Below are positions 9,210 through 42,177 of a stretch of DNA of 64,000 bases, in pieces. The stretch lies in the sequence record OR924452; one strand, given 5' to 3'. This stretch comes from Escherichia phage 241. The notes under the pieces are model-generated. The model worked only from the letters and a program-made list of their open reading frames with translations. It searched no databases and was not told the origin of the DNA. The number at the start of each line of letters is the position of its first letter. The first letter of the stretch is position 1. Position numbers and translations under genes: made by a program.

Positions 9210-9210
9210 G

Positions 9211-9240: not shown

Positions 9241-9450
9241 TAACTTGATGTCGCGGTCGGAAGGATTTGAATTTGCTAGAATATAACCATCAACCAAGTT
9301 CTTTTCATCCCACCATTCAATAAAATCATTTCCCTTTTCGTCTTTGATAAGACCCACAATGTTATATGAACCATCGGCGATTTTAGCGTCTACACAGATA
9401 ATTCTCACACGCCTTCCGTCACGAGTTTCTTTAATATCTTCAACCTTCAT
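9238..9450 (-). CDS. hypothetical protein (70 aa)
   Basis: Minus-strand ORF between genes 13 and 14, ends at the bidirectional terminator. Confidence 0.45.
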   Translation of the reverse strand: MKVEDIKETRDGRRVRIICVDAKIADGSYNIVGLIKDEKGNDFIEWWDEKNLVDGYILANSNPSDRDIKL

Positions 9451-9481
9451 TTATCAATTCCTCAAAAGAATTAATGATTGA

Positions 9482-9489
9482 CTAAATAC
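9482..9489 (+). promoter_or_regulatory. late-promoter-like motif CTAAATAC
   Basis: About 22 nt upstream of ATG 9512; followed by CTTCAAAATTGAG, also seen before the sheath gene. Confidence 0.5.
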
Positions 9490-9511
9490 CTTCAAAATTG
9501 AGGGTAAAGTC

Positions 9512-10153: not shown

Positions 10154-10155
10154 TC

Positions 10156-10854: not shown

Positions 10855-10856
10855 TC

Positions 10857-11537
10857 ATGAGCAATATGTCAGAAAGGTTACTTGCGACGCTAGACGCGGT
10901 GACTGCCAGAGATGAAGTTGGTAAGGAGGCGATGGAAGCCGTCTCTCCACGTCCAGGTATTGACTTCGATGAAAAAACGGGCGAGTGGTTTGGTGAACGC
11001 CCAGAAGGTTATCAGCCGATTCCAGAACCTCCATCATTGGAAGATATCGCGTCCAAAGAATCCAAGGTTCCGGAGTTTGCGGATACTGATGCCACAACAG
11101 ATTACAAGCGAATACGCGATACGACATACGCCATGCAGGAAGCCACGATGTTCATGATGGGGCAAGCTGCTAAATTAGCTGCATCTACCGAAGCCCCAAG
11201 AGCGTTTTCTGTGTTTCGTGAATTGGGCGAACTCATGCGCGGCCTGAACAAAGACCTGATGGAAAACCAAAAAACCATCAAAGCTGTGACAGGGGATAAA
11301 GAACCGCCGACTGATGACACAACCGTGGATGTTACCACTTCACCCGACGGGACCACAACAGTATCTGTTGGGAAGAAAGCGAGATCTTCGCGCGATTTAT
11401 TGAAAACGATCGAAGATGCACGCCGCCGCGCTGAAGAACGCGCTCAGGCAAAAGCCACCCAACAAACCGAAGATGAAATTATCGACGGTGAAACGGTTGA
11501 CGTGAAGGAAAAAGACGATGGCGTATCAGAAGCGTGA
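10857..11537 (+). CDS. terminase small subunit, T4 gp16-like
   Basis: Immediately upstream of and overlapping the large terminase gene; GGAGGA RBS before ATG 10857; acidic/charged C-terminal region. Confidence 0.55.
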   Translation: MSNMSERLLATLDAVTARDEVGKEAMEAVSPRPGIDFDEKTGEWFGERPEGYQPIPEPPSLEDIASKESKVPEFADTDATTDYKRIRDTTYAMQEATMFMMGQAAKLAASTEAPRAFSVFRELGELMRGLNKDLMENQKTIKAVTGDKEPPTDDTTVDVTTSPDGTTTVSVGKKARSSRDLLKTIEDARRRAEERAQAKATQQTEDEIIDGETVDVKEKDDGVSEA

Positions 11538-13728: not shown

Positions 13729-13731
13729 TCA

Positions 13732-13739
13732 CTAAATAT
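13732..13739 (+). promoter_or_regulatory. late-promoter-like motif CTAAATAT
   Basis: About 40 nt upstream of sheath ATG 13781; followed by CTTTCAAATTGAG. Confidence 0.5.
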
Positions 13740-13780
13740 CTTTCAAATTGAGCGAAACTCTACCGAGAAGGAATAACATT

Positions 13781-15676: not shown

Positions 15677-15682
15677 AAGATC

Positions 15683-15708
15683 AACCCCGCTTCGGCGGGG
15701 TTTTCCTT
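15683..15708 (+). terminator. rho-independent terminator
   Basis: CCCCGC-TTCG-GCGGGG hairpin followed by TTTT, after sheath stop. Confidence 0.7.
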
Positions 15709-15732
15709 TATCCCACATATTTGAGTTATTGA

Positions 15733-16191
15733 ATGATATACGCATACAAAATTGAAATGGTTTGTAATGGAAAGGTCTACATCGGTGTGACCAATGACCC
15801 ACAACGAAGATATGATCAGCATTTTGCGAATGCCTTTCATCATGGAGTCCAAAGTGAATTGTATGACGCCATGCGTAAGTATGGAACATCTGGATTTACT
15901 TTCGTTGTAATTGCTCAGACCGATGAAGTCCATAAATGGGAATTAGAGAAGCAACTCATCGCTCAATATAATTCTTATGAGATGGGTTACAACATGAATA
16001 AAGGCGGTAATGATGGAAGTCATATGCTGGGTAAAACTGCAGCAAAATTGACATCCACAGGTGAACACATTGGTCTTGTTTCTCTCATAGATCCCCGTTG
16101 GGAATTGTGTGAAATCGAACCTGTTTCAAGTAATGTTCACCATGGTTTCGATCTTTCTTCTATGAAGATTAAAAGATTGACGACTAATTAG
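15733..16191 (+). CDS. GIY-YIG homing endonuclease (free-standing)
   Basis: N-terminal IYAYKIEMVCNGKVYIGVTNDPQRRYDQH matches GIY-x10-YIG with conserved Arg/His; inserted between sheath and tube genes. Confidence 0.7.
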   Translation: MIYAYKIEMVCNGKVYIGVTNDPQRRYDQHFANAFHHGVQSELYDAMRKYGTSGFTFVVIAQTDEVHKWELEKQLIAQYNSYEMGYNMNKGGNDGSHMLGKTAAKLTSTGEHIGLVSLIDPRWELCEIEPVSSNVHHGFDLSSMKIKRLTTN

Positions 16192-16221
16192 AATTGTGTA
16201 CTCTTATTTGGAGATATAAAA

Positions 16222-28719: not shown

Positions 28720-30225
28720 ATGTCAGAAATTCAAATAATCAAAGTTAACGAAGTGCGCATGCGAATCTTGGCGGAGGACTATATCCGCGAAGAACTCAAT
28801 GATTACTTCAAATTTGAAGATCCTAATTTCCAACCGAATCCCTTCAGTAAATGGGATGGCGTGGTACGCTTGTTCACAAAGAGTTCTGGTCTTATAGACA
28901 TCGGTCTGTTGTTTGAGGTGTTTAAGTTCTGTAAGATGAATGGTTACACCATCAAATTAGATCCCGCCTTAAAATATATCCAAGATATACCAGACGAAGA
29001 GATACATACATTTATCAATTCCCTGAACGCTGTTTACCGTGATGAAAACAAGCAATACCAAATCGCAACAGTGCGGGACTATCAATTCGACTCAGTGGCC
29101 ACAGCAATACGCCAATCCAGATGCGTGCTAGAAGCGGCTACGAGCGCGGGTAAATCGTTTATTTTGTACATCATGGCGCGTTACTACAGGCAACGCAGAG
29201 AGGCACTGGAAAGCAATCTCAAGACGTTGATCGTTGTACCTTCCATTCACTTGGTGACTCAGTTGTATGACAACTTTGAGGAATACAGCCATGGCACAAA
29301 TTGGAATACCATGATGAATGTCCAGATGATATGTGAAGGCGCAACAAAGGACATATTCAAGCCCATAGTCATTTCTACATGGCAGGGTATTCAGAATCAG
29401 CCCAAAGAATGGTTCCATCAATTTGGGGATATTGTTGTCGACGAAGTACACACATCTAAATCTGAAAAGCTATCTTATATCCTGAACAACTGCATTAATG
29501 CTGACCAAAGATTGGGAGTAACCGGAACCCTCGCGAATACAAAGGTTGCAGGGTTGCAGGTCGTTGCCCATTTTGGAGCATACCATAAAATTATTACAGC
29601 ACGTGATTTAATAAATCTTGGTTATGCCACAGATATCCATGTCAACATGATTGAAGTCATACATCCCATGGCGGATTGTATAGAAATGCATGGTGCTGAG
29701 TATCAAAAGGAAATAGAATTCCTCATAGCGAATGAACGTCGAAACGAGTTAATAGCCAGAATGGCATTGTCTTTGAAAGGTAACGTGGCCGTTATGTTCG
29801 AACGCATTGACGCCCATATGATGATTGTTTATGAAATGCTTTCAGCCGTTAAGAAAAACGTATTTGTCATTAACGGCGAAGTTAAGACAGAAGTTCGTAA
29901 ACAAATTCAGGCAGCGATGGAAGAGGGTGAAGATATAACACTGCTGGCATCTTATGGGACCATGCAACAGGGAGTGTCGATCAAAAAACTTCATCATTTG
30001 ATATTGGCACACCCGAGTAAATCCTATATCCGTGTCATACAGACTTTAGGGCGTCTCATGCGCCAGCACTCTTCAAAGGATGTCGCCAAGATCTGGGATT
30101 TAGTAGACAACTTGCGTTACAATGGATTCTCGTACAACCATGCTCTCAGACATTCGCATGAGAGATATAAATTTTATCTTATGGAGCGACACCCTGTACA
30201 AATGAAGAAAGTGTCGCTCCAGTAA
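28720..30225 (+). CDS. uvsW: ATP-dependent DNA helicase UvsW
   Basis: EAATSAGKSF Walker A, IVVDEVH Walker B; VISTWQGIQNQPKEWFHQFG matches T4 UvsW VVGTWQTVVKQPKEWFSQFG; 501 aa from ATG 28720. Confidence 0.9.
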   Translation: MSEIQIIKVNEVRMRILAEDYIREELNDYFKFEDPNFQPNPFSKWDGVVRLFTKSSGLIDIGLLFEVFKFCKMNGYTIKLDPALKYIQDIPDEEIHTFINSLNAVYRDENKQYQIATVRDYQFDSVATAIRQSRCVLEAATSAGKSFILYIMARYYRQRREALESNLKTLIVVPSIHLVTQLYDNFEEYSHGTNWNTMMNVQMICEGATKDIFKPIVISTWQGIQNQPKEWFHQFGDIVVDEVHTSKSEKLSYILNNCINADQRLGVTGTLANTKVAGLQVVAHFGAYHKIITARDLINLGYATDIHVNMIEVIHPMADCIEMHGAEYQKEIEFLIANERRNELIARMALSLKGNVAVMFERIDAHMMIVYEMLSAVKKNVFVINGEVKTEVRKQIQAAMEEGEDITLLASYGTMQQGVSIKKLHHLILAHPSKSYIRVIQTLGRLMRQHSSKDVAKIWDLVDNLRYNGFSYNHALRHSHERYKFYLMERHPVQMKKVSLQ

Positions 30226-30226
30226 T

Positions 30227-30571
30227 TCATTTGTCTTGGTTCACATAGGCGGGGGTCGCCTCGCCTTCTTTGTCAGAACCGAATAAACAACCCATCGTGC
30301 TGATGCATTGTTGTAGAACTTCTGGATCCAGAATCTGACACAACAGTTGTTCATTACATTCCAGCAATGGGACAACTTTCACTTCCCGCGCCTGTCCTTG
30401 TTGAATAATGCCGACATATAGACCTTTGGTGTCTGGCAGTAACGGGATCACCATCATTGGTGTCACAACAAACTTAGAAGTGCAATAGAGGCTGTGTAGG
30501 TAAACACCTTTCAATGCCGGACATGCTTCTTGTTCTTCCCCCACTGCATATAAACCCACGAATTGTTTCAT
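30227..30571 (-). CDS. hypothetical protein (114 aa, Cys-containing)
   Basis: Minus-strand ORF divergent from gene 45. Confidence 0.45.
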   Translation of the reverse strand: MKQFVGLYAVGEEQEACPALKGVYLHSLYCTSKFVVTPMMVIPLLPDTKGLYVGIIQQGQAREVKVVPLLECNEQLLCQILDPEVLQQCISTMGCLFGSDKEGEATPAYVNQDK

Positions 30572-30906
30572 ATATTACTCTCTTGTTAGTAAACATGACT
30601 ACATAATAATTTCATGCTGTGTTTAGACCAAATAAATTATTTTGCTAGTTGAATAAAAATCGCTTTCTTGTTGAACAAACCGTGCGTAATATACGAGTTG
30701 TGAGCTTTGCGAGCAACGAGTATTATCACGAGCGAAGCGAGTAGACTAATAAAGAAAGGTTTATTAAAACAGAATACTATAAATGCCGTCAGGCATTTAT
30801 TTATCGCGCGTAGGGCATTTTAACACTTGTTCTATAACTGCAAACACGCGATACTAATTTGCGTCAAACATGACTTGAACCCCACTATATTTTGAGGATA
30901 TAAACA

Positions 30907-31575
30907 ATGCAAGAGATCACTCTCTCTGAACGTACTTTACAACTGCTGGCCAACTTTGAAACCATTTGCCCTTCTATCGTTCTGGCACCTGGTAAAAAGC
31001 TGCGCACTGTTAACGACTCCAGCACCGTCATCGCTATCGCTGACATCGACGAAGACTTCCCGTTTGAATTCCCTATTTTGGATCTGACCAAACTTCTGGC
31101 CATTCAGCGTCTGCCTAGTTTCAAAGGCGGTAAAATCGAAATGTCGGAAGATCATATTTTACTGAAAGGTGAAAACTCGCAGCTGCAATTCTGGCGCTCA
31201 GCAAAAGAATTGACTGTCGTTCCTGCCGACAGCATTGATCTCCCGTCCGTTGAATTCGAAGCGACGGTCACTCCTGAAAAAATGAAAGAGCTGACCCGCG
31301 CCTGTTCTACTCTGGGACACAAAACTGTTCGTCTGGTTGCCAGCGGCGGTAAAACCCGTCTGGTCGGTACGACTACGACTATCGATAATTCCAACGATTA
31401 CACCGTTGAATTGGGTGAAACTGCTCTGGCTGATTTCGCTATGCCTGTCGACGTTGTTAACCTGAAAATGATCGAAGGCAACTATGTGATCCGCGCCTGT
31501 GCTGAAATGCAGCTTGTTAACTTCCAGTCGGCTGACGGCACCATCAACTACTACGTTGGCATGCAGCTGGATTAA
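30907..31575 (+). CDS. sliding clamp, T4 gp45-like
   Basis: 222 aa; N-terminal LQLLANFETICPSIVL resembles T4 gp45 TALLKNFATINSGIML; followed by clamp-loader genes. Confidence 0.85.
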   Translation: MQEITLSERTLQLLANFETICPSIVLAPGKKLRTVNDSSTVIAIADIDEDFPFEFPILDLTKLLAIQRLPSFKGGKIEMSEDHILLKGENSQLQFWRSAKELTVVPADSIDLPSVEFEATVTPEKMKELTRACSTLGHKTVRLVASGGKTRLVGTTTTIDNSNDYTVELGETALADFAMPVDVVNLKMIEGNYVIRACAEMQLVNFQSADGTINYYVGMQLD

Positions 31576-31603
31576 TCAATATCGCTTCGGCGCTTTATTA
31601 TCG

Positions 31604-31630
31604 GTGGCGGGGTTATTATCCCGCCCTTTG
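31604..31630 (+). terminator. hairpin terminator / attenuator between genes 45 and 44
   Basis: GGCGGGG-TTATTAT-CCCGCC hairpin followed by TTTG. Confidence 0.5.
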
Positions 31631-31655
31631 AAATGTTTTATCTAAAGAGGCTGCA

Positions 31656-32645
31656 ATGTCCAACATTACTATCGTTACAGACCAATACGCGTGGGAAAAC
31701 AAATATCGTCCTGATAATTTAGATGAGATCGTTCTCCCCTCAGACGTCCGTGCCAAGATCCATGGTTATGTTACCTCTGGCAACGGAAACATCCCCTCTA
31801 TGCTGTTCTACTCCCCTCAGCCTGGTACGGGTAAAACTACTTCTGCTCTGGCCGTGTGCAATGAAATCGGTTGTGTGAAACCTCTGATGATCAACGCATC
31901 GCTTGACAACAGCATTGATGTGATTCGCGATCGTGTTATTCAATATGCTACTGGCGTCAGCGTTTTCGGTGGTCGGAAAGTCGTCATCCTCGACGAAGTT
32001 GAGCGTCTTTCTATGGCGGCTCAGGAATCATTGAAAGGTATCGTGGAAAAGGTTTCCAAGAACTGCTCGTTTATCCTGACCACCAACGCCAAACAGCGTG
32101 TCAATGAGCCTCTGCGTTCTCGTTGCCGTGAAATTGATTTCATCTGGTCCGAAAAAGAAGCCGACGAAGTTAAACTTCAATTTATGCGTCGTTGTGCCGC
32201 TATCCTGACAGAAGAAGGCATTCCATACGAAGCTGGTGTTATTGCGTCGATTGTCAAGTCGTATTTCCCCGACAACCGTAAGATTATGGGCACCCTTCAG
32301 GATAATGCCACCACGTTTGGTAAAATCGATGAACGTGCTTTAGCTCAGGTGAAAGCGGGTGAATTCCAGGCGCTGGTCGATTTCTTAAAGGCCAATGATT
32401 GGGCTGGTATGAAGCAATGGGTGACCGACAACCAAAACTACATTACAGAGGACTTCTACTCTCGGTTTTTCCATTTCTGTGTCCCACAGAACAAAGAGAA
32501 GACTCCTTTGATTCAGAACGAATCTATCCCAGATTTGGTCTGCGTTTGTGGTCAGTCACAGATTGAACATCGTTCAGTTGGAGACGTCTGGTTACACGGC
32601 GTTTACTTCCTGACCAACGTCATGCTCAACATCAAGTGGAAGTGA
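31656..32645 (+). CDS. clamp loader large subunit, T4 gp44-like (AAA+ ATPase)
   Basis: Walker A PQPGTGKTT, Walker B VVILDEVERL; synteny 45-44-62. Confidence 0.85.
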   Translation: MSNITIVTDQYAWENKYRPDNLDEIVLPSDVRAKIHGYVTSGNGNIPSMLFYSPQPGTGKTTSALAVCNEIGCVKPLMINASLDNSIDVIRDRVIQYATGVSVFGGRKVVILDEVERLSMAAQESLKGIVEKVSKNCSFILTTNAKQRVNEPLRSRCREIDFIWSEKEADEVKLQFMRRCAAILTEEGIPYEAGVIASIVKSYFPDNRKIMGTLQDNATTFGKIDERALAQVKAGEFQALVDFLKANDWAGMKQWVTDNQNYITEDFYSRFFHFCVPQNKEKTPLIQNESIPDLVCVCGQSQIEHRSVGDVWLHGVYFLTNVMLNIKWK

Positions 32646-32649
32646 TATT

Positions 32650-33072
32650 ATGGCCGCTCCGTCACTGTTCGATTACCTGGGTGCTCTGAACAGCACCAAA
32701 GAGAATCTGTTGTTGACCGAAGACCCCGAAATCAGAAAGGCATTTGATCCTTTCATGACTCGGCGCGGCCTTGCCCAGAGTAAAGACACGTTGGTGGTTG
32801 CAGAACGAATGAACCACTTTCATGCCATTACTCCTTGGATGCAATGGAACCTTGCGTTTCATAGCATTCCGGCGAAACGCCGTTATGGCAAATGGTCTAA
32901 GAAAGGAGCCATGGACCCTGATGTAAAATTGATTTCTGAGTATTACTACATCAGTCCTGAAAAGGCTTCTGAGTATGTTCGATTCCTGCCGAAAGAAGTC
33001 CTGGCTGAAATCAAGGCGAAGGTCGAACGTTCCAACAGCAACGAAAAAGCTAAACCGCGCAAGGCTAAGTAA
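32650..33072 (+). CDS. clamp loader small subunit, T4 gp62-like
   Basis: AKRRYGKWSK resembles T4 gp62 RGKRYGKWAK; synteny. Confidence 0.7.
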   Translation: MAAPSLFDYLGALNSTKENLLLTEDPEIRKAFDPFMTRRGLAQSKDTLVVAERMNHFHAITPWMQWNLAFHSIPAKRRYGKWSKKGAMDPDVKLISEYYYISPEKASEYVRFLPKEVLAEIKAKVERSNSNEKAKPRKAK

Positions 33073-33101
33073 TTCAAATTATTGTTAAAGGGGTACGAGT
33101 C

Positions 33102-33566
33102 ATGGCGCGTAATACGCTGGACATCTTGAAACTTTCAGCTGTTAACGATGAGGCCAGCATCGTTGATTGTATGGTTGAAGTTCAATTGAACCAAGATAAA
33201 CCAGGAATTTTCCTGGGTATCAAGGAAACGCTGAGCCGCATCGGGGTGAACACTCGTCAAGAGCCGAATACCCTGTACCAAACATGTCATATTCTGCATA
33301 AATTTGGCAGATATCACATCGTGCACTTCAAGCATCTTTTCATGCTGGATGGGCATTACAACGGCTTTACGCGTGAAGATGTCCTGCGTATGAATCGGAT
33401 TATTCGGCTTTTGGAGCAGTGGAATATGGTTAAAATACTGCATCCGGAACAGATTACCGAAGTTGCTGATATGTCTCGAATCAAAGTTGTAAAACATGAC
33501 CAAGTTTCTGATTGGAAACTGGTTCCAAAATATACCATCCGCCCGAGTCGGGCGAAAAGCGAATAA
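33102..33566 (+). CDS. regA: translational repressor RegA
   Basis: QTCHILHKFGRYHIVHFKHLFMLDG and DWKLVPKYTI match T4 RegA; start may be the internal Met at 33171, which aligns with the T4 N-terminus. Confidence 0.85.
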   Translation: MARNTLDILKLSAVNDEASIVDCMVEVQLNQDKPGIFLGIKETLSRIGVNTRQEPNTLYQTCHILHKFGRYHIVHFKHLFMLDGHYNGFTREDVLRMNRIIRLLEQWNMVKILHPEQITEVADMSRIKVVKHDQVSDWKLVPKYTIRPSRAKSE

Positions 33567-33582
33567 CTGGAGTCGCTATATT

Positions 33583-34446
33583 ATGACAACTACATTTAAT
33601 AAAAACGTGAGACTGAATCTGGCTTTTGGTAATGCTGCAGGGGACGTGACCGCCCCCGACTTTAGCAAAATACGCAATCAGGCGAAACTCGTGCTGGAAG
33701 AGACCCGCGAACTTCTGGAAGCGGCTTATTACGATCATCAAGTGGTTCTAACATTAGAATTGAATCCTCGAGAAAGCGAGACGCCGACCACTACCGAAGA
33801 TCTGATGAAAGCCATCATGGACGCGCAGGGTGATATCACTACTGTTAACGACGGTGTGGCCCATATCGCGGGTTTCAATGGCGATGAGTGCTTACAGCGC
33901 GTGTTTGCTTCCAACATGAGCAAGTTTATCCGCTCTGAAGATGAAGTCGGTCCGGCTCTGGACTATTACTATTCTCGCGGTTTCCCTGATGGGCAATTGC
34001 GTGTGGAAGGCGAATTCCCTCAGGCATGTATTAAAGTTAATGAAACTGTCGTTTGGAATGGTAAAGAATATCCTAAAGGGAAATTCCTTAAAAACATGGC
34101 CGTTTTCCAAGAGCCTGATTTTTCTGACATGCTGACCAAAACTCCTTCCCGTCAGATCAACGATATCGTTGCCAGCATGGCGATTGAAGAAGGTCAGGTG
34201 TTTATCGATGATCTCAATGGCGTGGCGTTGGTATCTCCGAACACATTGGGTGTAATCCTTTCCATGGCTGTTGAAAAAACTTCTCAACCTGTAGAGATCG
34301 ACGGGCAAATCGAAAGTTATGTGCCAGCGTTCATCGTGGATGACACCAATATGCCTAAGCTGTGTGGGGTGTGGGGTTCTAATGTTCGTGTTTATGCGAG
34401 CACTCCAGTGCAGAACACGGTAACACACCTCTCCCGTATCGATTAA
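33583..34446 (+). CDS. hypothetical protein (288 aa)
   Basis: ATG 33583 follows regA stop; no family recognised. Confidence 0.5.
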   Translation: MTTTFNKNVRLNLAFGNAAGDVTAPDFSKIRNQAKLVLEETRELLEAAYYDHQVVLTLELNPRESETPTTTEDLMKAIMDAQGDITTVNDGVAHIAGFNGDECLQRVFASNMSKFIRSEDEVGPALDYYYSRGFPDGQLRVEGEFPQACIKVNETVVWNGKEYPKGKFLKNMAVFQEPDFSDMLTKTPSRQINDIVASMAIEEGQVFIDDLNGVALVSPNTLGVILSMAVEKTSQPVEIDGQIESYVPAFIVDDTNMPKLCGVWGSNVRVYASTPVQNTVTHLSRID

Positions 34447-34468
34447 TATAAACCGTTATTCATTAAAC

Positions 34469-34497
34469 AACAGAGGCTATAATGGCCTCTGTTTTTG
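34469..34497 (+). terminator. rho-independent terminator
   Basis: CAGAGGC-TATAATG-GCCTCTG hairpin followed by TTTTTG. Confidence 0.6.
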
Positions 34498-34515
34498 TAT
34501 TCTAGAGAGGATACC

Positions 34516-35739
34516 ATGAAAGATAAACCGTGTGACATTCCTTATTGCGGTGTTCGGGAAACCAAAATTAAATCTGCACACCCCACGTTAAGTCCATTCC
34601 ATAAACAACTCGCATACGAATGGATGAGTGAGCGCTATAAGATCCACGTGAGAAAGGACGTCCAACGTCTTCCTGCTCCTTGGACGGATAATCCCATACT
34701 ACGGCAGGTCAAGTTCTGTAACGTCCGGAGAGAGCACGACAGGCAGTCTCTTAACCTGATCAACAATATCGTCAAGAACGATGCTCTGGGCATGGCCGAC
34801 AAGATGTTCAACTGTGTTCTGTTCCGCATGTTCAACCTCTGGGACCCGATCAAGGCTATCGGTGACGCTCGTACTATCAAAGAGTTCGCAAACATCGATC
34901 TTGATGCAACCCGCAAAAGTCTTCAGGAATTTGAGGCCAACGGTGGTAAGATCTTCACCAATGCCTTCAACACAGGCGGTCTAAAGCAGTGTCTGGCGTT
35001 CCCCGAACTCGTTGTCAACCACAAGGAGCAGCGCTTTGGTGGTATGATGGTTAAGGTACACCGTGTTGGCCAGGGTATCGTTGATGAATTGGATTACAAG
35101 GTCGCCAAGAAGCTGGTTGAAGAAAATCCTGGGGAGTACACGATCGAGGGCTGGGAGCCGTACATGCCGATGCGTGTTATCCGTTCCCTGAAGGCATTTG
35201 TCAACAAGTATCCTGATTATTTCAATGATCTTTTACGTCTTGACTCTCCGCTGAAAGTTTACCAGCGCATGTATGACGACATTGAAGGGCTTGGGCCATT
35301 CCTGGCATATCAGATATGGGTGGACTTCACATACATCCCTGAGTATCCATTCAGTGAGAATCACTTCACCATCGCTGGCCCAGGTTGCCGTGCGGGTATT
35401 GACCTGATGTTCCTGGATAAGGACGGTATGACTCATGAAGAGTGCATCTTCTGGGTTCGAGATCACCAGTATCAATTGTTTGCCCAGTATGGTTATGTCC
35501 AAGAGCAGTTCTGGTCAGCCGAAGCGCCGGAAGATCAGTGCATGAATGTCATGCAGCTGGAGAACATGTTCTGTGAATTGAGCAAGTACACCCGCTGTGT
35601 TGAGGCTATTGAGAGAGGGGAAAAGCCACGCGGCAAGGTCGGTTACGATGGAGGCGGAGAATACAAAAAGCGGTGCGATGAAGTTGTCCTTAAACGCGGT
35701 TCCGTCAATTTGTTAGATCGTTTGAAGAAACCTGAATAA
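34516..35739 (+). CDS. hypothetical protein (407 aa), Cys-rich
   Basis: ATG 34516 with GAGAGGATA RBS; no family assignable by inspection. Confidence 0.5.
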   Translation: MKDKPCDIPYCGVRETKIKSAHPTLSPFHKQLAYEWMSERYKIHVRKDVQRLPAPWTDNPILRQVKFCNVRREHDRQSLNLINNIVKNDALGMADKMFNCVLFRMFNLWDPIKAIGDARTIKEFANIDLDATRKSLQEFEANGGKIFTNAFNTGGLKQCLAFPELVVNHKEQRFGGMMVKVHRVGQGIVDELDYKVAKKLVEENPGEYTIEGWEPYMPMRVIRSLKAFVNKYPDYFNDLLRLDSPLKVYQRMYDDIEGLGPFLAYQIWVDFTYIPEYPFSENHFTIAGPGCRAGIDLMFLDKDGMTHEECIFWVRDHQYQLFAQYGYVQEQFWSAEAPEDQCMNVMQLENMFCELSKYTRCVEAIERGEKPRGKVGYDGGGEYKKRCDEVVLKRGSVNLLDRLKKPE

Positions 35740-35851
35740 AGAATCGCTTTACTTCATTCTTCAATAACCCCCTTTCAACGTATATTGACCTCACTTTAAC
35801 GACGCGCCCATTTAGGGCGCTCAATTTGAACTGAAACAGGAAGACTACACC

Positions 35852-37873
35852 ATGGCAGAATTTAAACCTTTCGCAACGGCTGTTAATGATAACGTGCTGG
35901 CGATGTCCGCAACTGGTCTGTTCATGACCAACGTTGATAAAGATGCTCTGTGGGATTTGTATTTGGCATCCTTCCCAGCTGGTACCAACCCGATGTACCG
36001 CGAACGCACTGAACACGACTGCACCTGCTGTAAACAATTCATCCGTAATATCGGCGGCGTCGTGACTATCGATGCTGACCTGAACGTTATCTCGATTTGG
36101 GACAACATTGAGCTGGGTAACGAATACGATGTGGTCGCGGCGGCGTTATCTGCATATGTCAAACAACACGCAATCGTTGATGTGTATTTCAACGATTCTG
36201 CTAAAGTCGGCCTGTCTCATAACCACGAATCTGGTGAAGACGGCAAAATCCGCACGTATAACCATTTCCACACAGAACTGCTCGGCAGCTATGTCCTGCG
36301 TTCTGATGCTATCGCATCTAAAAAAGGTGAAATCCGACAGGCTATCGAATTATTTGAACGCGGTCTGCGTGAAATTACTCTGGAATCAGCAGAAATCGTT
36401 CTGGAATTGATTGATCAGAATTCTTTGTATCGCGGTGCTGAACATAAAGCTGCGGTGATGGGCTTCGTAGTAGCCAAGACGGCATATGAAGAAATCCCAG
36501 AATCTAACCGTTCTCTGTGGGCATGGCGCACTGGTTATCGTTCAAACAATCATGTTCCACATGGCATTCGCAACACCGTTATCGGTACTCTGTTGACGGA
36601 TATCAGTGAAGGCGTGGAACTGGAAAAGGCCGTTAAGTCGTTTGAAACCAAAGTTGCCCCAGCGAACTACAAACGCCCGACGGCTCTGGTCTCCAAGTCC
36701 ATGATCGAAAACGCTCAGAAAGAAGTGATTGCTCTCGGTCTGGAAGATTCGCTGGCGCGTCGTTATGCAGTTTATGACGACCTGACGATCAATAACGTTC
36801 TGTTTGCAGACCTGGCTGCTCAAAAAGCGATGGATCCATTCGCTCAACTGGCCGCCGAAGTGAAAACGCCGACCAAGTCTCTGGATAAAGTTGAAGAGAT
36901 TGGCATTGATGACTTCCTGAGCAATATTCTGCCGAAAGCGCATTCGATGGAAGTGCTGGTTGAAAACTCGCATACTGGCAACCTTATGTCTCTGGTCGCT
37001 CCGGCTATTGCAGGTGCTCCTAACCTTTTCAAATGGGGCAACGGTTTCTCATGGTCATACAACGGCGAAGTGGCCGACTCCATCAAAGAGCGTGTGAAAG
37101 CGGCTGGCGGTAAAGTCGACGGGTTCCTCCGTGTATCCCTGGCCTGGCACAACAACGATGACCTCGATCTGCATATGTTCTTTAACAATATGGAACATGT
37201 GTACTTCCGCGATCGTCGTTCAATGACTGGTGCTCATCTCGATATCGACATGAACGGTATGGACGGCATCGACCCGAACCGCTCTCCGGTAGAAAACATC
37301 ATCTTCACTGATGAAAGAAAGTTGCGTGACGGTGAATATCGTTTTGAGATTCACAACTACAACCAACGTGAAAAGATCGACGAAGGGTTTGAAATTGAAG
37401 TTGAATACAAAGGCGCTACGCAACGTTTCAGCCACAATGGGTTAAAAGACCAGGGGCGCATCACTGCCGTCGTTCTGACTGTTAAAGACAAACAAGTCGT
37501 TAGCATCAAGTCTGAGCTGGCGAATGTTGATAAATCCAAAGAAATTTGGGGCATTAAGACAGCGACCTTCCAGAAGGTACAGCTGGTCCTGAACTCACCA
37601 AACCATTGGGATGGTGAACAAACTGGCAACAAGCACGTCTTCTTCATCTTGGAAGGTTGTGCGAATCCTGAAGGTACTCGTGGTTTCTACAATGAATATC
37701 TGAAGCCGGAACTGGATAAACATCGTAAGGTTTTTGAAATGCTGGGTAGTAAAATGAAAGTACAACCCAACGAAAACCAACTGTCTGGTCTGGGGTTCTC
37801 GACAACGCAACGCAACCATGTGTTCGTCAAAGTGTCCGGCGCGTTTAACCGTACTGTAAAAGTCATTTTCTAA
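35852..37873 (+). CDS. hypothetical large protein (673 aa)
   Basis: Long ORF with GGAAGA RBS; conserved-looking HDCTCC motif near N-terminus; no family recognised. Confidence 0.6.
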   Translation: MAEFKPFATAVNDNVLAMSATGLFMTNVDKDALWDLYLASFPAGTNPMYRERTEHDCTCCKQFIRNIGGVVTIDADLNVISIWDNIELGNEYDVVAAALSAYVKQHAIVDVYFNDSAKVGLSHNHESGEDGKIRTYNHFHTELLGSYVLRSDAIASKKGEIRQAIELFERGLREITLESAEIVLELIDQNSLYRGAEHKAAVMGFVVAKTAYEEIPESNRSLWAWRTGYRSNNHVPHGIRNTVIGTLLTDISEGVELEKAVKSFETKVAPANYKRPTALVSKSMIENAQKEVIALGLEDSLARRYAVYDDLTINNVLFADLAAQKAMDPFAQLAAEVKTPTKSLDKVEEIGIDDFLSNILPKAHSMEVLVENSHTGNLMSLVAPAIAGAPNLFKWGNGFSWSYNGEVADSIKERVKAAGGKVDGFLRVSLAWHNNDDLDLHMFFNNMEHVYFRDRRSMTGAHLDIDMNGMDGIDPNRSPVENIIFTDERKLRDGEYRFEIHNYNQREKIDEGFEIEVEYKGATQRFSHNGLKDQGRITAVVLTVKDKQVVSIKSELANVDKSKEIWGIKTATFQKVQLVLNSPNHWDGEQTGNKHVFFILEGCANPEGTRGFYNEYLKPELDKHRKVFEMLGSKMKVQPNENQLSGLGFSTTQRNHVFVKVSGAFNRTVKVIF

Positions 37874-37910
37874 TTGATTTGACAACAACTTCGTAATAAG
37901 GAACAAAGAA

Positions 37911-38282
37911 ATGTTTGATCAAGCAACCCGTTTAAAACTGCGTTTTAACTCCAACAAAGGTCTGCTGTCTGTTGAGCAGGTTTGGGATCTGAATCTGAAC
38001 GCACTGAACGAGCTGGCGAAAGATCTGAGCCGTCAGGTGAAAGAAGCAGCCAGTGATGAAGAAGACTTCATCGGTGTGAAAAGCGCGGTCGATTCTCAGT
38101 TACAACTGCGGTTCGATATCGTGAAAGCGATCATCGGTGTTAAACTGAAAGAACGCGATGAAAGCGCGACCGCAGCAGAGCGTAAAGCGAACAACCAGGC
38201 GATCATGGAACTGATCCAGCGTAAGAAACAACAGGAACTGGAAGGTCTGTCTGTTGAAGAACTGGAAAAACTCCTGAAATAA
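37911..38282 (+). CDS. hypothetical protein (123 aa, predicted helical)
   Basis: ORF with AAGGAA RBS, followed by strong terminator. Confidence 0.5.
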   Translation: MFDQATRLKLRFNSNKGLLSVEQVWDLNLNALNELAKDLSRQVKEAASDEEDFIGVKSAVDSQLQLRFDIVKAIIGVKLKERDESATAAERKANNQAIMELIQRKKQQELEGLSVEELEKLLK

Positions 38283-38301
38283 TCTGTCGGCTCCGGCCTG
38301 A

Positions 38302-38330
38302 GAAACCCCGCACACGGCGGGGTTTCTTTT
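38302..38330 (+). terminator. rho-independent terminator
   Basis: GAAACCCCGC-ACACG-GCGGGGTTTC hairpin followed by TTTT. Confidence 0.7.
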
Positions 38331-38341
38331 GGACAAAAATC

Positions 38342-38752
38342 ATGAAATCTATTACGTGTGATTACTGCGGTCAACCTGCCCAATACGTCGGGGGTGATGT
38401 TGTATACCCCCACCGCCCCGATCTCCGCAATCTGAAGTTCTGGGTATGCTCGCCATGCGACGCTCGTGTGGGTTGCCATACCCATGGGGATGGTAGACAA
38501 CCTCTGGGAAGGATGGCGAATGCCGCTCTCCGTGCTGCTAAGCAGGAAGCTCATAGATCGTTTGACCCTATCTGGAAAAGTGGGCAGAGGAGCAGGAGTG
38601 ATGCTTACAGCTGGCTGGCTCATAATTTGGGGATCAAGAAGCGCGATTGCCATATCGGCTTGTTCGATATCGATATGTGCCGTAAAGTAGTCGCTGTGTG
38701 TAATCAACTAAAGGCACAAGATAATGTCAAAGGAAATACAAGAAGCATTTGA
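38342..38752 (+). CDS. zinc-ribbon protein (two CxxC pairs)
   Basis: CDYCG...CSPCDARVGCH cysteine pattern. Confidence 0.5.
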   Translation: MKSITCDYCGQPAQYVGGDVVYPHRPDLRNLKFWVCSPCDARVGCHTHGDGRQPLGRMANAALRAAKQEAHRSFDPIWKSGQRSRSDAYSWLAHNLGIKKRDCHIGLFDIDMCRKVVAVCNQLKAQDNVKGNTRSI

Positions 38753-38975
38753 AAATTTATCTCAGGTAATGACCGACTGCAACCGCCGGAATTATTGTGA
38801 TGAAGCGTATACCAAATTGAAAACTGCTGTTGAAACCGAGCTGGCAGGTCTTTCCGTTTTCAAAGATATTCAGACCGAAGCGCTATATCTGTCGGATGAA
38901 GATTTAAGGCGTTGCCCCCGCAAGATTTACCAATTACTGGATCGTTTGGTGAAAGTGGGGGTGAATAATGGGTAA
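38724..38975 (+). CDS. hypothetical protein (83 aa)
   Basis: ORF overlapping neighbours by short junctions. Confidence 0.4.
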   Translation: MSKEIQEAFENLSQVMTDCNRRNYCDEAYTKLKTAVETELAGLSVFKDIQTEALYLSDEDLRRCPRKIYQLLDRLVKVGVNNG

Positions 38976-39693
38976 TCGTGAAGGGATTAAACTCACACCA
39001 GAACTTCTGAAGTCACATATTGCTGAAGTGATTTATGAAGACCGTGAAGTTGGTGGTCACCGCGTCATTACATGCCATTTCAAGATGGACAATGGGTTCG
39101 TTGTGTGGGGTAAGAATAGTTCCACATCGGTAGACCCTGCCAACTTCGATGAAGAAATAGGCAAGCAGCTGGCCTATGAAAAGACCTTTTCTCAACTGTG
39201 GGAACTGGAAGCATATCGCGCGATGGTAGAAAAGCAGATCATCGATGTGTCTGCCGAAGATGCTAAGATCAACATTGATGAATATGTGTCAGAAAGGGAA
39301 GCGATACATGAGATGGGTGGTTCTGAATTTCTTAAGGGTAAAGGACAATCCATCGTGTTTCGTCATCCCAAAGATCCAAGTCGGGGATTTCGCGTTGAAT
39401 TTGTTCGCACCGATAATGAACGTTATAACGAACGACGCAATGGTGAGGCACGATCTTTGGTGGAAGCGTATCTTCGCTCGTTCATGACTTCTGAAGATCT
39501 AAATTCTGAACTTGTCCTGCGTTTGGCGAAAACGTGTAATGCTGCTTCAGGGGATTATCCGTGGTGTGACCTGTCAGAAGACAAACGCCAAGCAGCCTGT
39601 GATCGTGTTAAGAAATTCTTGTTAGATCCAAAAGCCCAACCTGGCGATTCCGTAGGGGCACTGTATAGAGCCATTGTGGTGTCCTACTTGTAA
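38968..39693 (+). CDS. protein with N-terminal N4-gp49 / Sf6-gp66-like domain
   Basis: VITCHFKMDNGFVVWGKNSSTSVDPANFDEEIGKQLAYEKTFSQLWELEAY resembles the phage gp49/gp66 family signature. Confidence 0.5.
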   Translation: MGNREGIKLTPELLKSHIAEVIYEDREVGGHRVITCHFKMDNGFVVWGKNSSTSVDPANFDEEIGKQLAYEKTFSQLWELEAYRAMVEKQIIDVSAEDAKINIDEYVSEREAIHEMGGSEFLKGKGQSIVFRHPKDPSRGFRVEFVRTDNERYNERRNGEARSLVEAYLRSFMTSEDLNSELVLRLAKTCNAASGDYPWCDLSEDKRQAACDRVKKFLLDPKAQPGDSVGALYRAIVVSYL

Positions 39694-39960: not shown

Positions 39961-42177
39961 ATGATTGAATCATTAACATTTAAAAATGCGGTAGCAACCG
40001 TCGCGCCGTCTAACCATGTAATCGTTGTGGATATCTCCGGTTCCATGTACCGTTCACTTCCTGAAGTTCGCAAGCATCTGAAGGAAAATCTCCCGTCTCT
40101 GGTTAAACCAGAAGATACCGTCAGCATTCTTTACTTTTCATCCCGTGGTGATTTCGGTACGGTATTCGCTGGCCGTCAGATCAATAGCGCGACCGATCTC
40201 AGTGAAATCAATAAACTGATTGACCGCTTCCTGCAACCGTCCGGTTGTACGGGATTTGTAGAACCTCTGAAGTTGGCTGCTGAAACCGCGTTGAGCCTGA
40301 ACAAACCTGGTTATGTCAATAACCTGGCGTTCATGACCGACGGCTATGACAACTGCTGGCGCTCGAATGAAATTCTGGCAGCAGCTGAAGTACTGCCCAA
40401 GGCGTTCGATAATATTACATTCATCGAATATGGCTGGTACTGTAACCGCGAACTTCTGGCCCTGATGTCCGAGCGTTCTGGCGCGACTCACGTGTTTGCC
40501 GAAGGTCAGACTGAATATCAGACCGAACTGGAAAACGTACTGAAATCATCTACGCCGAAAGTGGTTGTTGATGTTCCCCTGGTTTACACTCATGCCATTT
40601 ACGTTGAAAACGGCGTGGCAACTGTGCTAGCCGTACAACCCGATGAAGAACACCCGATTGGCCACGTCAGCATCCCTGAAAGCGTTTCTCAGCTGTGGGT
40701 TGTAAACCCTGACATGATCGACCAGCTGGATAATCTGGCAGACACCCAGGCGGCATACGTGCTGGCATTCTATGGCGTGTACACCATGGACGCCGATCTG
40801 GTCTGGGCCGCGCTGAAGAAGACGGGTGACGTCCGCTTCATCAAACAATACAGCAACTGTTTCACCAAGCAGGACTATTCCAACATCAAAGTCGATCTGA
40901 CCCAGGCTATCGTGGATGAAACTCTGCGCGGCGTAGATGGCATCGATTACAATATGGTTCCAGCTGAAGATGCAACGACCATTGTTGATGTCTTGACCTA
41001 CCTGGCCGAAGCCGATGTCTCTGTTGTCACTAAGCATCCGCTGTTCTCTTACAACAGCATCGGTCGCGGTACTGTGCAGAAAGTTGATGACACTGAAGAC
41101 AAGCTGGCTGAACAAATCGCCGAAGCCAAAACCAAAGCAGAGCGTAAAGCGCTGGCTCTCAAACTGGCTGAGCACGAAGATTGGACGCCGGAATTTACTC
41201 CGGTTGATGACAAAGGGATTGTCCCAATTAGCAATCTGGTCTACAATTCAGAGCGCCCTAACATCAGCATTCAGACCGTTCAGCATGGGACGGTTGTTGT
41301 GCCGGAGTTCGTACAGAAGAAATATGAACTCCCTGAAGAACTGGGAACCTGGCGTTATCGTAATTACACCATCGTCAAAGATGGAATCATCAACCTGAAG
41401 ACGATGCCGATTACTGCCGAATCTCCGATTGTCCGAGCTAAGGTTGTCCAAGATTTGATCGCCATGGGCGTTAATGTATTTGGTGGACCGGAAATCTTCA
41501 TCGTTAATTTAGAAAGTGTTCCGATGGTCAACCGCGCCATGACCAAGAACATCAGTGCTGCCGAATTCTTCGCTGACAACGTTCGTCGCGAAGCGCTGAA
41601 GGCAAAACAGAAAGTTCTGAAATTCTATCGTGATGAACTGGTTGGCAAAGGCAATGCAACTGGTCTGGCTTCTAAATATGGTAAAGAAGCCGCCGATTTC
41701 TTGTCGGCAAATGGCATTCGCGACTACGGGTTCTCGCCGAAAACTACTTCTGTGGAATCAACCGATGTCTACATGAGCCGTGAGCTGAATGTGAAAATCA
41801 AAGGTGCTTCGTCGCTGCCGAGCATTGCGTCAGTTATCAAAAAGCAAGCAGATGGTAAAAAACTGAATGTCGCTGATCAGTTGATTGCCAATGCTCTGGC
41901 CGAATACGACGCTTTTGTTAAATCTCCAATGATCACCAGCGTACCTGAAGAGACTCAGAAAAAGCTGATTGAAAGCTGGATCGGAGACGCAGCAAAAGCG
42001 GCCATTAACGAAGTCCGCGCCCTGAACAAAACGCTGTCTAAAGTCGTTTACGGCATCGTCGCTGGTCATGGTTGGTTCACTGATTTGGATCTGGAAGAGT
42101 CTACGATGGATGTAGAAGTTGATGGGGTGAAATACACCGTCACTGCCGAACTGGCCGAAAAAGAAATCAAAATCTAA
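39961..42177 (+). CDS. von Willebrand factor type A (vWA) domain protein with long C-terminal extension
   Basis: MIDAS motif VVDISGSM (DxSxS) and downstream MTDGYDN; ATG 39961 preferred over upstream GTG 39925. Confidence 0.65.
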   Translation: MIESLTFKNAVATVAPSNHVIVVDISGSMYRSLPEVRKHLKENLPSLVKPEDTVSILYFSSRGDFGTVFAGRQINSATDLSEINKLIDRFLQPSGCTGFVEPLKLAAETALSLNKPGYVNNLAFMTDGYDNCWRSNEILAAAEVLPKAFDNITFIEYGWYCNRELLALMSERSGATHVFAEGQTEYQTELENVLKSSTPKVVVDVPLVYTHAIYVENGVATVLAVQPDEEHPIGHVSIPESVSQLWVVNPDMIDQLDNLADTQAAYVLAFYGVYTMDADLVWAALKKTGDVRFIKQYSNCFTKQDYSNIKVDLTQAIVDETLRGVDGIDYNMVPAEDATTIVDVLTYLAEADVSVVTKHPLFSYNSIGRGTVQKVDDTEDKLAEQIAEAKTKAERKALALKLAEHEDWTPEFTPVDDKGIVPISNLVYNSERPNISIQTVQHGTVVVPEFVQKKYELPEELGTWRYRNYTIVKDGIINLKTMPITAESPIVRAKVVQDLIAMGVNVFGGPEIFIVNLESVPMVNRAMTKNISAAEFFADNVRREALKAKQKVLKFYRDELVGKGNATGLASKYGKEAADFLSANGIRDYGFSPKTTSVESTDVYMSRELNVKIKGASSLPSIASVIKKQADGKKLNVADQLIANALAEYDAFVKSPMITSVPEETQKKLIESWIGDAAKAAINEVRALNKTLSKVVYGIVAGHGWFTDLDLEESTMDVEVDGVKYTVTAELAEKEIKI

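Follow-up and report, generated by a model that had tools for sequence, protein, structure and literature searches.

In phage T4, the genes of the replication block run in the order 45-44-62-regA-43. The 64,000-nucleotide stretch of Escherichia phage 241 analysed here (OR924452, hereafter the window) has the first four genes in the same order and orientation, which raises the question of what the two following genes, designated genes A and B, encode in place of the gene 43 polymerase. The window belongs to a ViI-like phage (Kuttervirus, Ackermannviridae), with 99.3-99.6% identity to Vi01 and Mooltan over this region. Pfam searches matched regA, gp62 and gp44, in addition to a weak match for the gp45-like clamp (21 bits; cutoff, 25), supporting the T4-like order recognized in the original prediction. 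Compared to T4, in which gene 43 comes next, the kutterviruses carry a MazG-like gene and gp160 at this place. The prediction that no family B polymerase follows regA was also correct: neither gene A nor gene B has a Pfam match to polymerase or exonuclease domains, and a tblastn search of the whole window with the Vi01 polymerase and T4 gp43 returned no match. In Vi01, the family B polymerase lies ~57 kb away, beside gp243 and gp247 and outside the window. As replication genes are scattered in Ackermannviridae, with the polymerase intact elsewhere in the genome, the position inside a replication module, from which a function had been argued, is not the real evidence. Genes A and B are two conserved Ackermannviridae genes that fill the slot after the 45-44-62-regA operon, and the regA-A-B order is seen again in Miltonvirus.

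Both genes are plus-strand open reading frames at the predicted coordinates (Table 1), starting with the ATG codons at 33583 and 34516, respectively. The predicted length of 407 residues is correct for gene B, whereas gene A encodes 287 residues, the reported 288 including the stop codon. The stop codon of regA sits 17 nt upstream of gene A, which seems to close the transcription unit formed by the clamp, clamp-loader and regA genes; the hairpin between genes A and B has an RNA folding energy of -15.8 kcal/mol (z -2.9). Besides this terminator, the region has no meaningful repeats, no Rfam family was found within 30000-39000, and no T4-type late promoter (TATAAATA) lies close to gene A or gene B. 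The frequency of sigma-70-like sites is not above chance. The GC and GC3 contents of both genes are within the range of the neighbouring genes, with no sign of recent acquisition.

Table 1. Features of the clamp-to-gp160 region, in coordinates of the window
Feature	Position	Strand	Basis
gp45-like sliding clamp	30907..31575	+	so annotated in Vi01 and Mooltan; Pfam gp45-slide_C 21.2 bits, under cutoff 25
gp44-like clamp-loader large subunit	31656..32645	+	Pfam AAA and Gp44_lid
gp62-like clamp-loader small subunit	32650..33072	+	Pfam Phage_clamp_A, 44.7 bits
regA translational repressor	33102..33566	+	Pfam Translat_reg, 120 bits; phrog_242
Gene A ribosome-binding site GGAG	33569..33572	+	sequence reading, 10 nt upstream of ATG; Mooltan RBS annotation at the same place
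Gene A, MazG-like NTP pyrophosphohydrolase homologue, Vi01_131c orthologue, 287 aa	33583..34446	+	286/287 identity; PHROG matches
Gene A N-terminal domain, aa 1-184	33583..34134	+	all-α NTP-PPase-like core, then conserved α/β segment
Gene A C-terminal extension, aa 185-287, lineage-specific	34135..34443	+	absent from Kevin, Vibrio and Cbunavirus homologues
Terminator-like hairpin in the gap between genes A and B	34469..34493	+	11-bp stem, 3-nt loop, then TTTTTGTATTCT; terminator scan; Mooltan terminator annotation
Gene B ribosome-binding site GAGG	34507..34510	+	sequence reading, 5 nt upstream of ATG; Mooltan RBS annotation at the same place
Gene B, ViI gp160 orthologue, aGPT-Pplase clade 1 / Pfam HMUDK_hel, 407 aa	34516..35739	+	406/407 identity; PF18723
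Ackermannviridae-specific insertion in gene B, ~aa 165-215	35008..35160	+	most representatives match the profile in two stretches, ~1-165 and ~215-365
G288-P-G-C291-R-A-G294 in gene B, probable HhH hairpin	35377..35397	+	at least 90% conserved family-wide; between two predicted helices
E349-N350-M-F-C353-E354-L-S-K357 in gene B, putative catalytic motif	35560..35586	+	conservation; hhalign to clade 2

The two genes, described as unknown by the original prediction, are already known and catalogued in the model phage ViI. Each product shares 99.7% identity with an annotated Vi01 protein, that of gene A with Vi01_131c and that of gene B with gp160 (Vi01_130c, YP_004327501). The latter equation follows from the "gp" numbers of Lee et al., which are the orf000NN notes of NC_015296, so that Vi01_130c (orf00160) is gp160. 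Gene B differs from this protein, the "aG/PT-PPlase1" of Lee et al. (2018), solely by a conservative substitution, Met93 in place of Ile, and shares its neighbours, namely regA, the MazG-like gene and a 673-aa gene. Pfam and PHROG searches assigned gene B to PF18723 and phrog_2396, and gene A to phrog_2144, contrary to the claim that neither has a recognisable motif. Taken literally, the view of two new proteins that stand in for the polymerase and have no recognisable relatives is hardly credible: many GenBank records do label both products "hypothetical protein", but the strong Pfam and PHROG matches, hundreds of homologues, named orthologues in RefSeq and the literature, and the intact polymerase elsewhere in the genome all speak against it. 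The description as Cys-rich holds only mildly: gene B has 11 Cys (2.7%, ~95th percentile of the long ORFs in the window) and gene A three (1.05%); only C291 and C353 of gene B are conserved family-wide. A role in DNA metabolism or nucleotide modification does fit both, since gene A is a MazG/PRA-PH homologue and gene B belongs to a thymidine-hypermodification family. Altogether, gene B is the gp160 orthologue and a clade 1 aGPT-Pplase; we consider it likely that it acts on 5-phosphomethyl-dU DNA and that gene A encodes a divergent MazG-type NTP pyrophosphohydrolase.

Judged from its profile matches and those of its homologues, the N-terminal 184 residues of gene A probably form a divergent MazG/PRA-PH-type NTP pyrophosphohydrolase domain. 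Gene A matches phrog_2144 "MazG-like pyrophosphatase" (E 1.5e-132) and phrog_671 (E 3.8e-19), and has itself no direct sequence match in Pfam, NCBIfam or PDB. It is conserved across Ackermannviridae, and the N-terminal domain is common to proteins of Cbunavirus, Samunavirus BHU-1, Miltonvirus and Vibrio ackermannviruses, the BHU-1 and Vibrio homologues being linked to gene A by tblastn (E 6e-18 to 6e-29). With the PRA-PH profile (cutoff 21.3), the BHU-1 homologue reaches 31.6 bits and that of Vibrio 207E48.1 reaches 25.3 bits; with the MazG profile (cutoff 22), BHU-1 reaches 22.0 bits. Five residues of the domain, E40, E43, D84, N111 and K114, are invariant among the homologues. The first metal-binding motif EExxE corresponds to L38-E39-E40-T-R-E43 within a predicted helix of residues 27-51. 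At the place of the second metal-binding motif, ExxD, the invariant D84 aligns with the Asp of "ELAD" in the MazG-like protein DR2231, the Glu position is taken by Ala81, and the nearby D80 is not invariant. Helices are predicted in the AF2 model, which was built from 20 close homologues and is too poor for a fold search (pLDDT 46.5), being unreliable in the C-terminal extension, a part that is poorly conserved in the alignment as well. A PAS domain in gene A was rejected, as the weak PAS_4 matches stay under the threshold and lie within helices of the NTP-PPase domain; the same applies to the "PAS domain" names in UniRef.

Profile search with the gene A family gave DR2231 of Deinococcus radiodurans (PDB 2yeu and others) as the best PDB match, with a marginal E of 0.043. 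The alignment pairs "GDITTVNDGVAHIAGF...VYASNMSK" of gene A with "ADLLYVTYGALDQLGI...VHRANLSK" of DR2231, including D84 and N111-x-x-K114. Gene A shares the EExxE motif with DR2231, Pfam PRA-PH and MazG, and its homologues exceed the PRA-PH threshold, but the statistics of the DR2231 match are marginal and gene A itself stays under every Pfam threshold. In addition, gene A differs from DR2231 in the replaced Glu of ExxD, an additional conserved α/β segment at aa 116-184 and a C-terminal extension of 100 aa. We propose that gene A would hydrolyse (d)NTP(s) to (d)NMP and PPi via a putative acidic site of E39/E40/E43 and D84, and would serve to shape the nucleotide pool, or to clean it, as replication proceeds.

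DR2231 is specific for dUTP. An NTP-PPase-type protein with such a best PDB relative, conserved throughout Ackermannviridae and present in a phage that replicates with 5-hmdUTP, might be the dTTPase/dUTPase of the pathway, excluding dTTP and feeding dUMP to the hydroxymethylase; we nevertheless regard this as distinctly unlikely. The proven enzyme of this kind is the bifunctional dTTPase/dUTPase gp18 of Acinetobacter phage SH-Ab 15599 (PMC13458397), which matches not gene A (E 1.7) but Vi01_058c (27% identity, E 4e-8), the ViI counterpart outside the window. Moreover, gp18 and Vi01_058c have a common gene neighbourhood from the hydroxymethylase to UvsX, gene A has no similarity to Vi01_058c either (E 1.2), and phage 15599 encodes a separate, distant homologue of gene A besides gp18. 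Gene A homologues occur also in phages not known for thymidine modification, and those of Cbunavirus and Samunavirus phages argue against this role too. Gene A is thus probably not the dTTPase/dUTPase of the phage. Despite the lack of detectable similarity, gp18 is a member of the same all-α NTP-PPase superfamily from a thymidine-hypermodifying ackermannvirus, and provides a precedent for nucleotide-pool remodelling by NTP-PPase enzymes.

Gene B covers positions 5-280 of the 281 in the PF18723 profile (HMUDK_hel, formerly aGPT-Pplase clade 1) at 280.1 bits (cutoff 25), and matches phrog_2396 with an E of 4e-156; no match was found in PDB by single-sequence or profile search, or in NCBIfam. The family comprises 4503 cluster representatives (E <= 0.001; clusters at 50% identity). 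Structural search against BFVD returned SP10 gp186, PhiW-14 and "Pplase1" proteins, in addition to AADT-domain proteins at a probability of 0.99. In Kuttervirus no hypermodification gene lies beside gene B; Vi01 also encodes the kinases gp67 (HMUDK_HMUD1) and gp243 (HMUD2), both outside the window, and a ThyA-like gene. Elsewhere, the clade 1 domain adjoins the kinase and dUMP hydroxymethylase genes in PaMx11, lies just upstream of the hydroxymethylase gene in phage 15599, and is part of a single polymerase-kinase-AADT-ThyA cluster in the Vibrio ackermannviruses (including D493). One metagenomic relative has TAGT, NT5C and dCMP deaminase genes nearby and no kinase within 8 kb. SP10 gp186 and P0302 combine the domain with a 5-hmdU DNA kinase in one protein: residues 313-598 at the C-terminus of Bacillus phage SP10 gp186 match PF18723 at 152 bits (Foldseek E 2.8e-12 to gene B), following a P-loop kinase, whereas the kinases gp67 and gp243 are separate genes in the present phage.

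The fold of gene B is all-α helix-hairpin-helix (HhH) and DNA-glycosylase-like, as indicated by a fold match to HhH glycosylases, and in this framework the segment from G288 to G294 is the probable HhH hairpin. The Ackermannviridae-specific insertion is modelled as a β-hairpin and a helix. Among 41 family sequences, down to 26% identity, conservation is complete for C353 and E354, reaches at least 90% for E349, N350 and K357, and is complete or at least 90% for R72, D270 and GPGC291. Comparison with the clade 2 aGPT-Pplases, or amino-acid:DNA transferases (AADTs; PF18724 ADDT: ViI gp247, M6 gp51, PaMx11 gp46 with PDB 8z2m, and 15599 Pplase2), revealed a common HhH-type fold, a similar E-[TN]-x-x-C-x(2,3)-K-like motif near the end of the fold, and the same pathway context. 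The segment E349 to K357 is the only one that hhalign pairs with the E-T-x-x-C motif of clade 2; it resembles "EVETILC247KWK" of PaMx11 gp46 (PMC11472151), and its E-N-x-x-C residues are spaced like the motif of gp46 and 15599 Pplase2. Mutagenesis has shown the clade 2 Cys and the Glu/Thr metal ligands to be indispensable (PMC8989533, PMC11472151, PMC13458397). However, gene B has an Asn in place of the metal-ligand Thr, a Glu rather than the Lys or Trp of clade 2 following the Cys, and the additional insertion. At the sequence level, BLASTP against gp247 was empty, hhalign to clade 2 gave an E of 0.014-0.14 at a probability of at most 3%, and PF18724 was not matched. On the basis of the motif and the overall fold, C353 is the putative equivalent of the transferase Cys.

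The Pfam name HMUDK is misleading for stand-alone proteins such as gene B. Its product as a 5-hmdU DNA kinase (PF18748 / PF18747) was rejected, as it matches no kinase family and has an HhH rather than a P-loop fold; the true kinases gp67 and gp243 score 386 and 561 bits on these families. Alternatively, gene B could be a non-catalytic, DNA-binding or base-flipping partner of the 5-hmdU DNA kinases that sets the phosphorylated thymidine contexts. The "kinase, helical domain" name, the fusions in SP10 gp186 and P0302, the DNA-binding HhH fold and the finding that kinases alone phosphorylate only ~23% of sites in vitro (PMC8989533) are in line with such a partner, but catalysis is indicated by the Cys-Glu dyad, which is invariant, and by the E-N motif, and the SP10 kinase domain is active without its C-terminal domain (PMC8989533), which together render this alternative unlikely.

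For the clade 1 aGPT-Pplase that we favour, we propose that gene B would bind newly replicated phage DNA and flip out 5-phosphomethyl-dU (5-PmdU), the product of the phage 5-hmdU DNA kinases gp67 and gp243. The thiolate of Cys353 might then attack C6 of the base, helped by E349/N350 and E354, upon which the phosphate would leave to give an exocyclic methylene intermediate. Gene B would resolve this intermediate to a product other than O-seryl-thymidine. The present analysis establishes the identity to gp160, the family, the relation of the fold, the conserved motif and the gene context, from which the substrate, the catalysis by Cys and the product are inferred. Previous work placed gp160 among the five ViI proteins of a lysate mix that rebuilt 5-NeOmdU (PMC5889632). 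By contrast, O-seryl-T and 5-NeOmdU were reconstituted from purified kinase, gp247 and gp226, and gp160, being absent, is therefore dispensable there; likewise Nα-glycinyl-T was made without M6 gp55, so that in this respect the gene B type differs from clade 2 (PMC8989533). No activity of any clade 1 protein, including on 5-PmdU DNA, has been published (PMC8989533, PMC11472151, PMC13458397).

Two other products can be considered. Firstly, gene B could be a second nucleophile:DNA transferase that uses a non-serine donor or another sequence context and adds a minor modification below notice so far. The fold and the type of motif are as in AADTs, and SP10 makes glutamyl-thymidine with only one aGPT-Pplase-type domain detected by Lee et al. 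(PMC5889632), a domain that belongs to clade 1 by Pfam. Nevertheless, only 5-NeOmdU and T were found in ViI DNA (PMC5889632), and no activity beyond the kinase was reported for full-length SP10 gp186 (PMC8989533), making a second transferase quite improbable.

Secondly, gene B might be a thymine-forming enzyme that uses the 5-PmdU sites left by the serine transferase gp247, with reduction of the methylene of the Cys-C6 adduct by a hydride donor to give T. This would explain virion DNA that has T and 5-NeOmdU but no 5-hmdU. The virions of ViI, M6, SP10, PhiW-14 and 15599 all have T and no 5-hmdU despite replicating with 5-hmdUTP (PMC5889632, PMC8989533, PMC13458397). A clade 1 candidate was confirmed as ViI gp160, SP10 gp186C, PaMx11 gp50 (M6-like), a PhiW-14 protein and 15599 gene 00016; for M6, the literature offers gp55, put in this gene class by Lee et al. 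(PMC5889632), besides an aGPT-Pplase1 annotated in SN1, another M6-like phage (PMC9476957). The retained Cys motif of catalytic type, the fusion or proximity of the clade 1 domain to the kinase making 5-PmdU, and the hypermodified product forming without gp160 (PMC8989533) are also consistent with thymine formation. On the other hand, a cofactor-binding domain is not evident in gene B, T formation was not reported for the five-lysate mix including gp160 (PMC5889632), and the contigs of some members show no kinase within 8 kb. Moreover, Lee et al. did not detect a second aGPT-Pplase, of the clade 2 type, in SP10, whose domain might hence be the glutamate transferase (PMC5889632). We consider thymine formation unlikely.

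The original prediction had proposed nucleoside analysis of the phage DNA, which is already published: ~40% of T in ViI-type DNA is 5-NeOmdU (PMC5889632, PMC11721090). As this dates from 2018, the modification carries little weight as a discovery. For gene A, the predicted pyrophosphohydrolase would mean that ViI-type phages have a second such enzyme, distinct from the likely dTTPase/dUTPase. For gene B, the remaining value is that gp160 is among the few members of the thymidine-hypermodification set that have no assigned reaction. Its family is large, with more than 4500 clusters at 50% identity, and is found in every phage group characterised here in which replication uses 5-hmdU but the packaged DNA has T (M6 via the literature). 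Gene B is a concrete and directly testable candidate for the step from leftover 5-hmdU to thymine. If the thymine-forming activity were true, clade 1 would be enzymes that make canonical thymine at the level of the DNA polymer in a thymidylate-synthase-like manner, and the pair of clade 1 and clade 2 would choose, site by site, between T and the hypermodified base for the replicated 5-hmdU.

The region 33000-36000 shares 99.3-99.6% DNA identity with Salmonella phages Mooltan, Matapan and Vi01 (ViI), Escherichia phage ECML-4 and ~20 further kutterviruses, and ~250 more Ackermannviridae records align to it at 60-90%. Vi01, from ~120 kb down to ~58.6 kb, and Mooltan, from position 37258 onward, are colinear with the window. 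The coordinates and synteny of the original prediction were borne out: both ORFs, here termed gene A and gene B, follow a gp45-like clamp, gp44, gp62 and regA, the order 45-44-62-regA-43 was verified in T4, and no polymerase homologue was found in the whole window. The family B polymerase of Vi01 (Vi01_190) is located at 145-148 kb, adjoining the kinase gp243 and the transferase gp247; replication genes are dispersed in Ackermannviridae, in contrast to Tevenvirinae (review, PMC11721090). The regA-A-B order is also present in Miltonvirus and is indicated by locus tags in Dickeya phage phiDP23.1. A strong terminator-like hairpin between the two genes (-15.8 kcal/mol, z -2.9) suggests that the clamp/clamp-loader/regA unit ends with gene A.

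Coordinates of the genes and features discussed
Feature	Coordinates	Strand	Remarks
Gene A	33583-34446	+	ATG start, 287 aa; GGAG 10 nt upstream; regA stop 17 nt before start
Hairpin between genes A and B	34469-34493		terminator-like
Gene B	34516-35739	+	ATG start, 407 aa; GAGG 5 nt upstream
673-aa ORF	35852-37873	+	phrog_1735 match end to end
DUF3268 zinc-finger protein	38342-38752	+	130 bits
738-aa protein	39961-42177	+	von Willebrand factor A domain at N-terminus
Intein in large terminase	about 11520-16200		Mooltan annotation and coordinates
GIY-YIG homing endonuclease	about 11520-16200		between tail sheath and tail tube genes; Mooltan annotation and coordinates
SHAb15599_00016 (clade 1), Pplase2	15599 locus 8961-9926, 4376-5251		HMM match, gene order
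SP10 gp185	SP10 locus 9652-12342		896 aa
Distant clade 1 relative and neighbours	ERZ15185477 NODE_30, 2437-9062

Genes A and B, previously described as unknown, are both known already, with 286 of 287 residues of A identical to Vi01_131c and 406 of 407 residues of B identical to Vi01_130c. The RefSeq notes of the form 'orf000NN' agree with the gp numbering used by Lee et al. (YP_004327432, orf00067, gp67; YP_004327553, orf00226, gp226; YP_004327565, orf00243, gp243; YP_004327568, orf00247, gp247), so that Vi01_130c, noted as orf00160, corresponds to ViI gp160. Lee et al. 2018 entered this protein as 'aG/PT-PPlase1' and predicted it to be a paralogue of gp247 with a glycosylase fold (PMC5889632); it was also one of five ViI proteins that, as a mixture of lysates, reconstituted 5-NeOmdU, the hypermodified base of ViI (PMC5889632). 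The gene B orthologue is already labelled 'Pplase1 ... clade 1' in some GenBank records, and genome papers also use this clade 1 naming (PMC10458263).

Neither gene had been thought to carry a recognisable motif, which does not hold, as gene B scores 280 bits on PF18723 (HMUDK_hel) and gene A has PHROG matches. A profile built from 26 gene B homologues matched 4503 cluster representatives at E <= 0.001, and the AF2 model of gene B is good (pLDDT 86.7). In a set of 41 members of the family, with identities as low as 26%, residues R72, F262, D270, C353 and E354 are invariant, and conservation is 90% or higher at G288-P-G-C291, E349, N350 and K357. The description as Cys-rich is apt in a mild sense, gene B having 11 Cys residues (2.7%), of which just two are conserved in the family.

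Comparison with the amino-acid:DNA transferases of clade 2, by both hhalign and sequence comparison, gave no significant similarity; the sole segment that hhalign ever pairs, at non-significant overall similarity, is 'LENMFCELSKY' of gene B with 'FETSGACWLKK' of gp247. The paralogues of phage PaMx11 carry similar motifs, 'REVEHTLCEFDKY' in gp50 (clade 1) versus 'QEVETILCKWK' in gp46, the catalytic residue of which is Cys247 (PMC11472151). In clade 2, the motif Cys is the C6 nucleophile, and Glu and Thr are metal ligands (PMC8989533, PMC13458397). From the paired segment and the likeness of the PaMx11 motifs, we infer that gene B retains a putative catalytic centre of the clade 2 type.

Our search of the literature found no published function for gp160, and none is assigned to it in Table 1 of the 2021 paper; purified kinase, gp247 and gp226 suffice for O-seryl-T and 5-NeOmdU, and Nα-glycinyl-T is made without M6 gp55 (PMC8989533). 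We propose that gene B would be a Cys-dependent enzyme, the substrate of which would be the 5-PmdU made in DNA by the 5-hmdU kinases. Alternatively, though improbably, it may be a second transferase. As to the product of the proposed Cys-dependent enzyme, ViI, M6, SP10, PhiW-14 and 15599 replicate with 5-hmdU, yet package T and no 5-hmdU, by a route to T stated to be unknown (PMC5889632, PMC8989533, PMC13458397), and on this ground thymine is an imaginable, albeit improbable, candidate.

The genomic context of the family repeatedly includes 5-hmdU DNA kinases, and gene B may alternatively, though improbably, act as their specificity partner. SP10 gp186 is a fusion of such a kinase (residues 35-193) to HMUDK_hel (313-598), and a metagenomic protein has the two in the opposite order. 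In PaMx11, gp50 has the kinase gene gp49 on one side and the dUMP hydroxymethylase gene gp51 on the other. Vibrio ackermannviruses possess a single cluster of polymerase, HMUD2 kinase, ADDT, two small genes and the gene B orthologue, followed by two genes, ThyA-like, dNMP kinase and dUTPase_2. Acinetobacter phage SH-Ab 15599 has a clade 1 gene, SHAb15599_00016 (HMM E 8e-33), that the paper on its dapT pathway does not mention (PMC13458397); it lies just upstream of the hydroxymethylase and gp18 genes. Downstream of 45-44-62 this phage has a small gene, possibly regA, and then Pplase2, in the place that genes A and B take in kutterviruses. In the window, gene B is the sole member of the hypermodification gene set.

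Direct evidence on gene A itself is thin: RefSeq names its Vi01 orthologue 'MazG-like pyrophosphatase', but the PHROG matches stand without any Pfam, NCBIfam or PDB sequence match, and the structure model is poor (pLDDT 46.5). Miltonvirus Kevin, Vibrio ackermannviruses and Cbunavirus (N4-like) phages encode a counterpart of the N-terminal 184 residues as a separate protein, and Samunavirus BHU-1 has it embedded in a longer one. The C-terminal 100 residues are lineage-specific. Two N-terminal homologues score above the Pfam PRA-PH threshold and one equals the MazG threshold. A profile including them has the MazG-like DR2231 as its best PDB match (E 0.043), with D84 and N111-x-x-K114 aligned; E40, E43 and D84 are invariant across the homologues. 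Gene A is unlikely to be the phage dTTPase/dUTPase, since 15599 gp18, a proven enzyme of this activity, matches not gene A but Vi01_058c, a dUTPase_2-type protein adjoining dnk, thyA and gp67, and 15599 has a separate, distant gene A homologue. Gene A is thus likely to be a second NTP pyrophosphohydrolase, with a different specificity. The proposed role of both genes in nucleotide metabolism or modification is supported, gene B belonging to the gp160 family and gene A being MazG-like; as a whole, the original prediction was partly confirmed.

Several further features were also observed. Immediately after gene B comes the 673-aa ORF, which is uninterrupted in this sequence; the annotation of Vi01 divides it into two CDS (Vi01_129c, Vi01_128c), and that of Mooltan into 58 aa and 603 aa. 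It has no Pfam or NCBIfam match, and its homologue in Kevin likewise lies beside gene B. The DUF3268 zinc-finger protein is annotated in Vi01 (Vi01_126c), whereas the Mooltan annotation has a gap at the equivalent position. The 738-aa protein is followed by an acyl-carrier-protein gene, according to the Vi01 and Mooltan annotations, a pairing unusual for a phage. An intein and a homing endonuclease gene are also annotated (Table).

In SP10, gp185 has no Pfam match at E <= 0.001, and was named a radical SAM enzyme by Lee et al. (PMC5889632), who detected no clade 2-type aGPT-Pplase in this phage (PMC5889632). If SP10 truly lacks one, its glutamate-transferring enzyme is still to be identified. 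A distant clade 1 relative shares a metagenomic phage contig with genes for a glycosyltransferase of the TAGT family (PF20691), a 5'-nucleotidase (NT5C) and a dCMP deaminase, with no 5-hmdU kinase visible within 8 kb; given these neighbours, certain members of the clade 1 family may serve other base-modification pathways.
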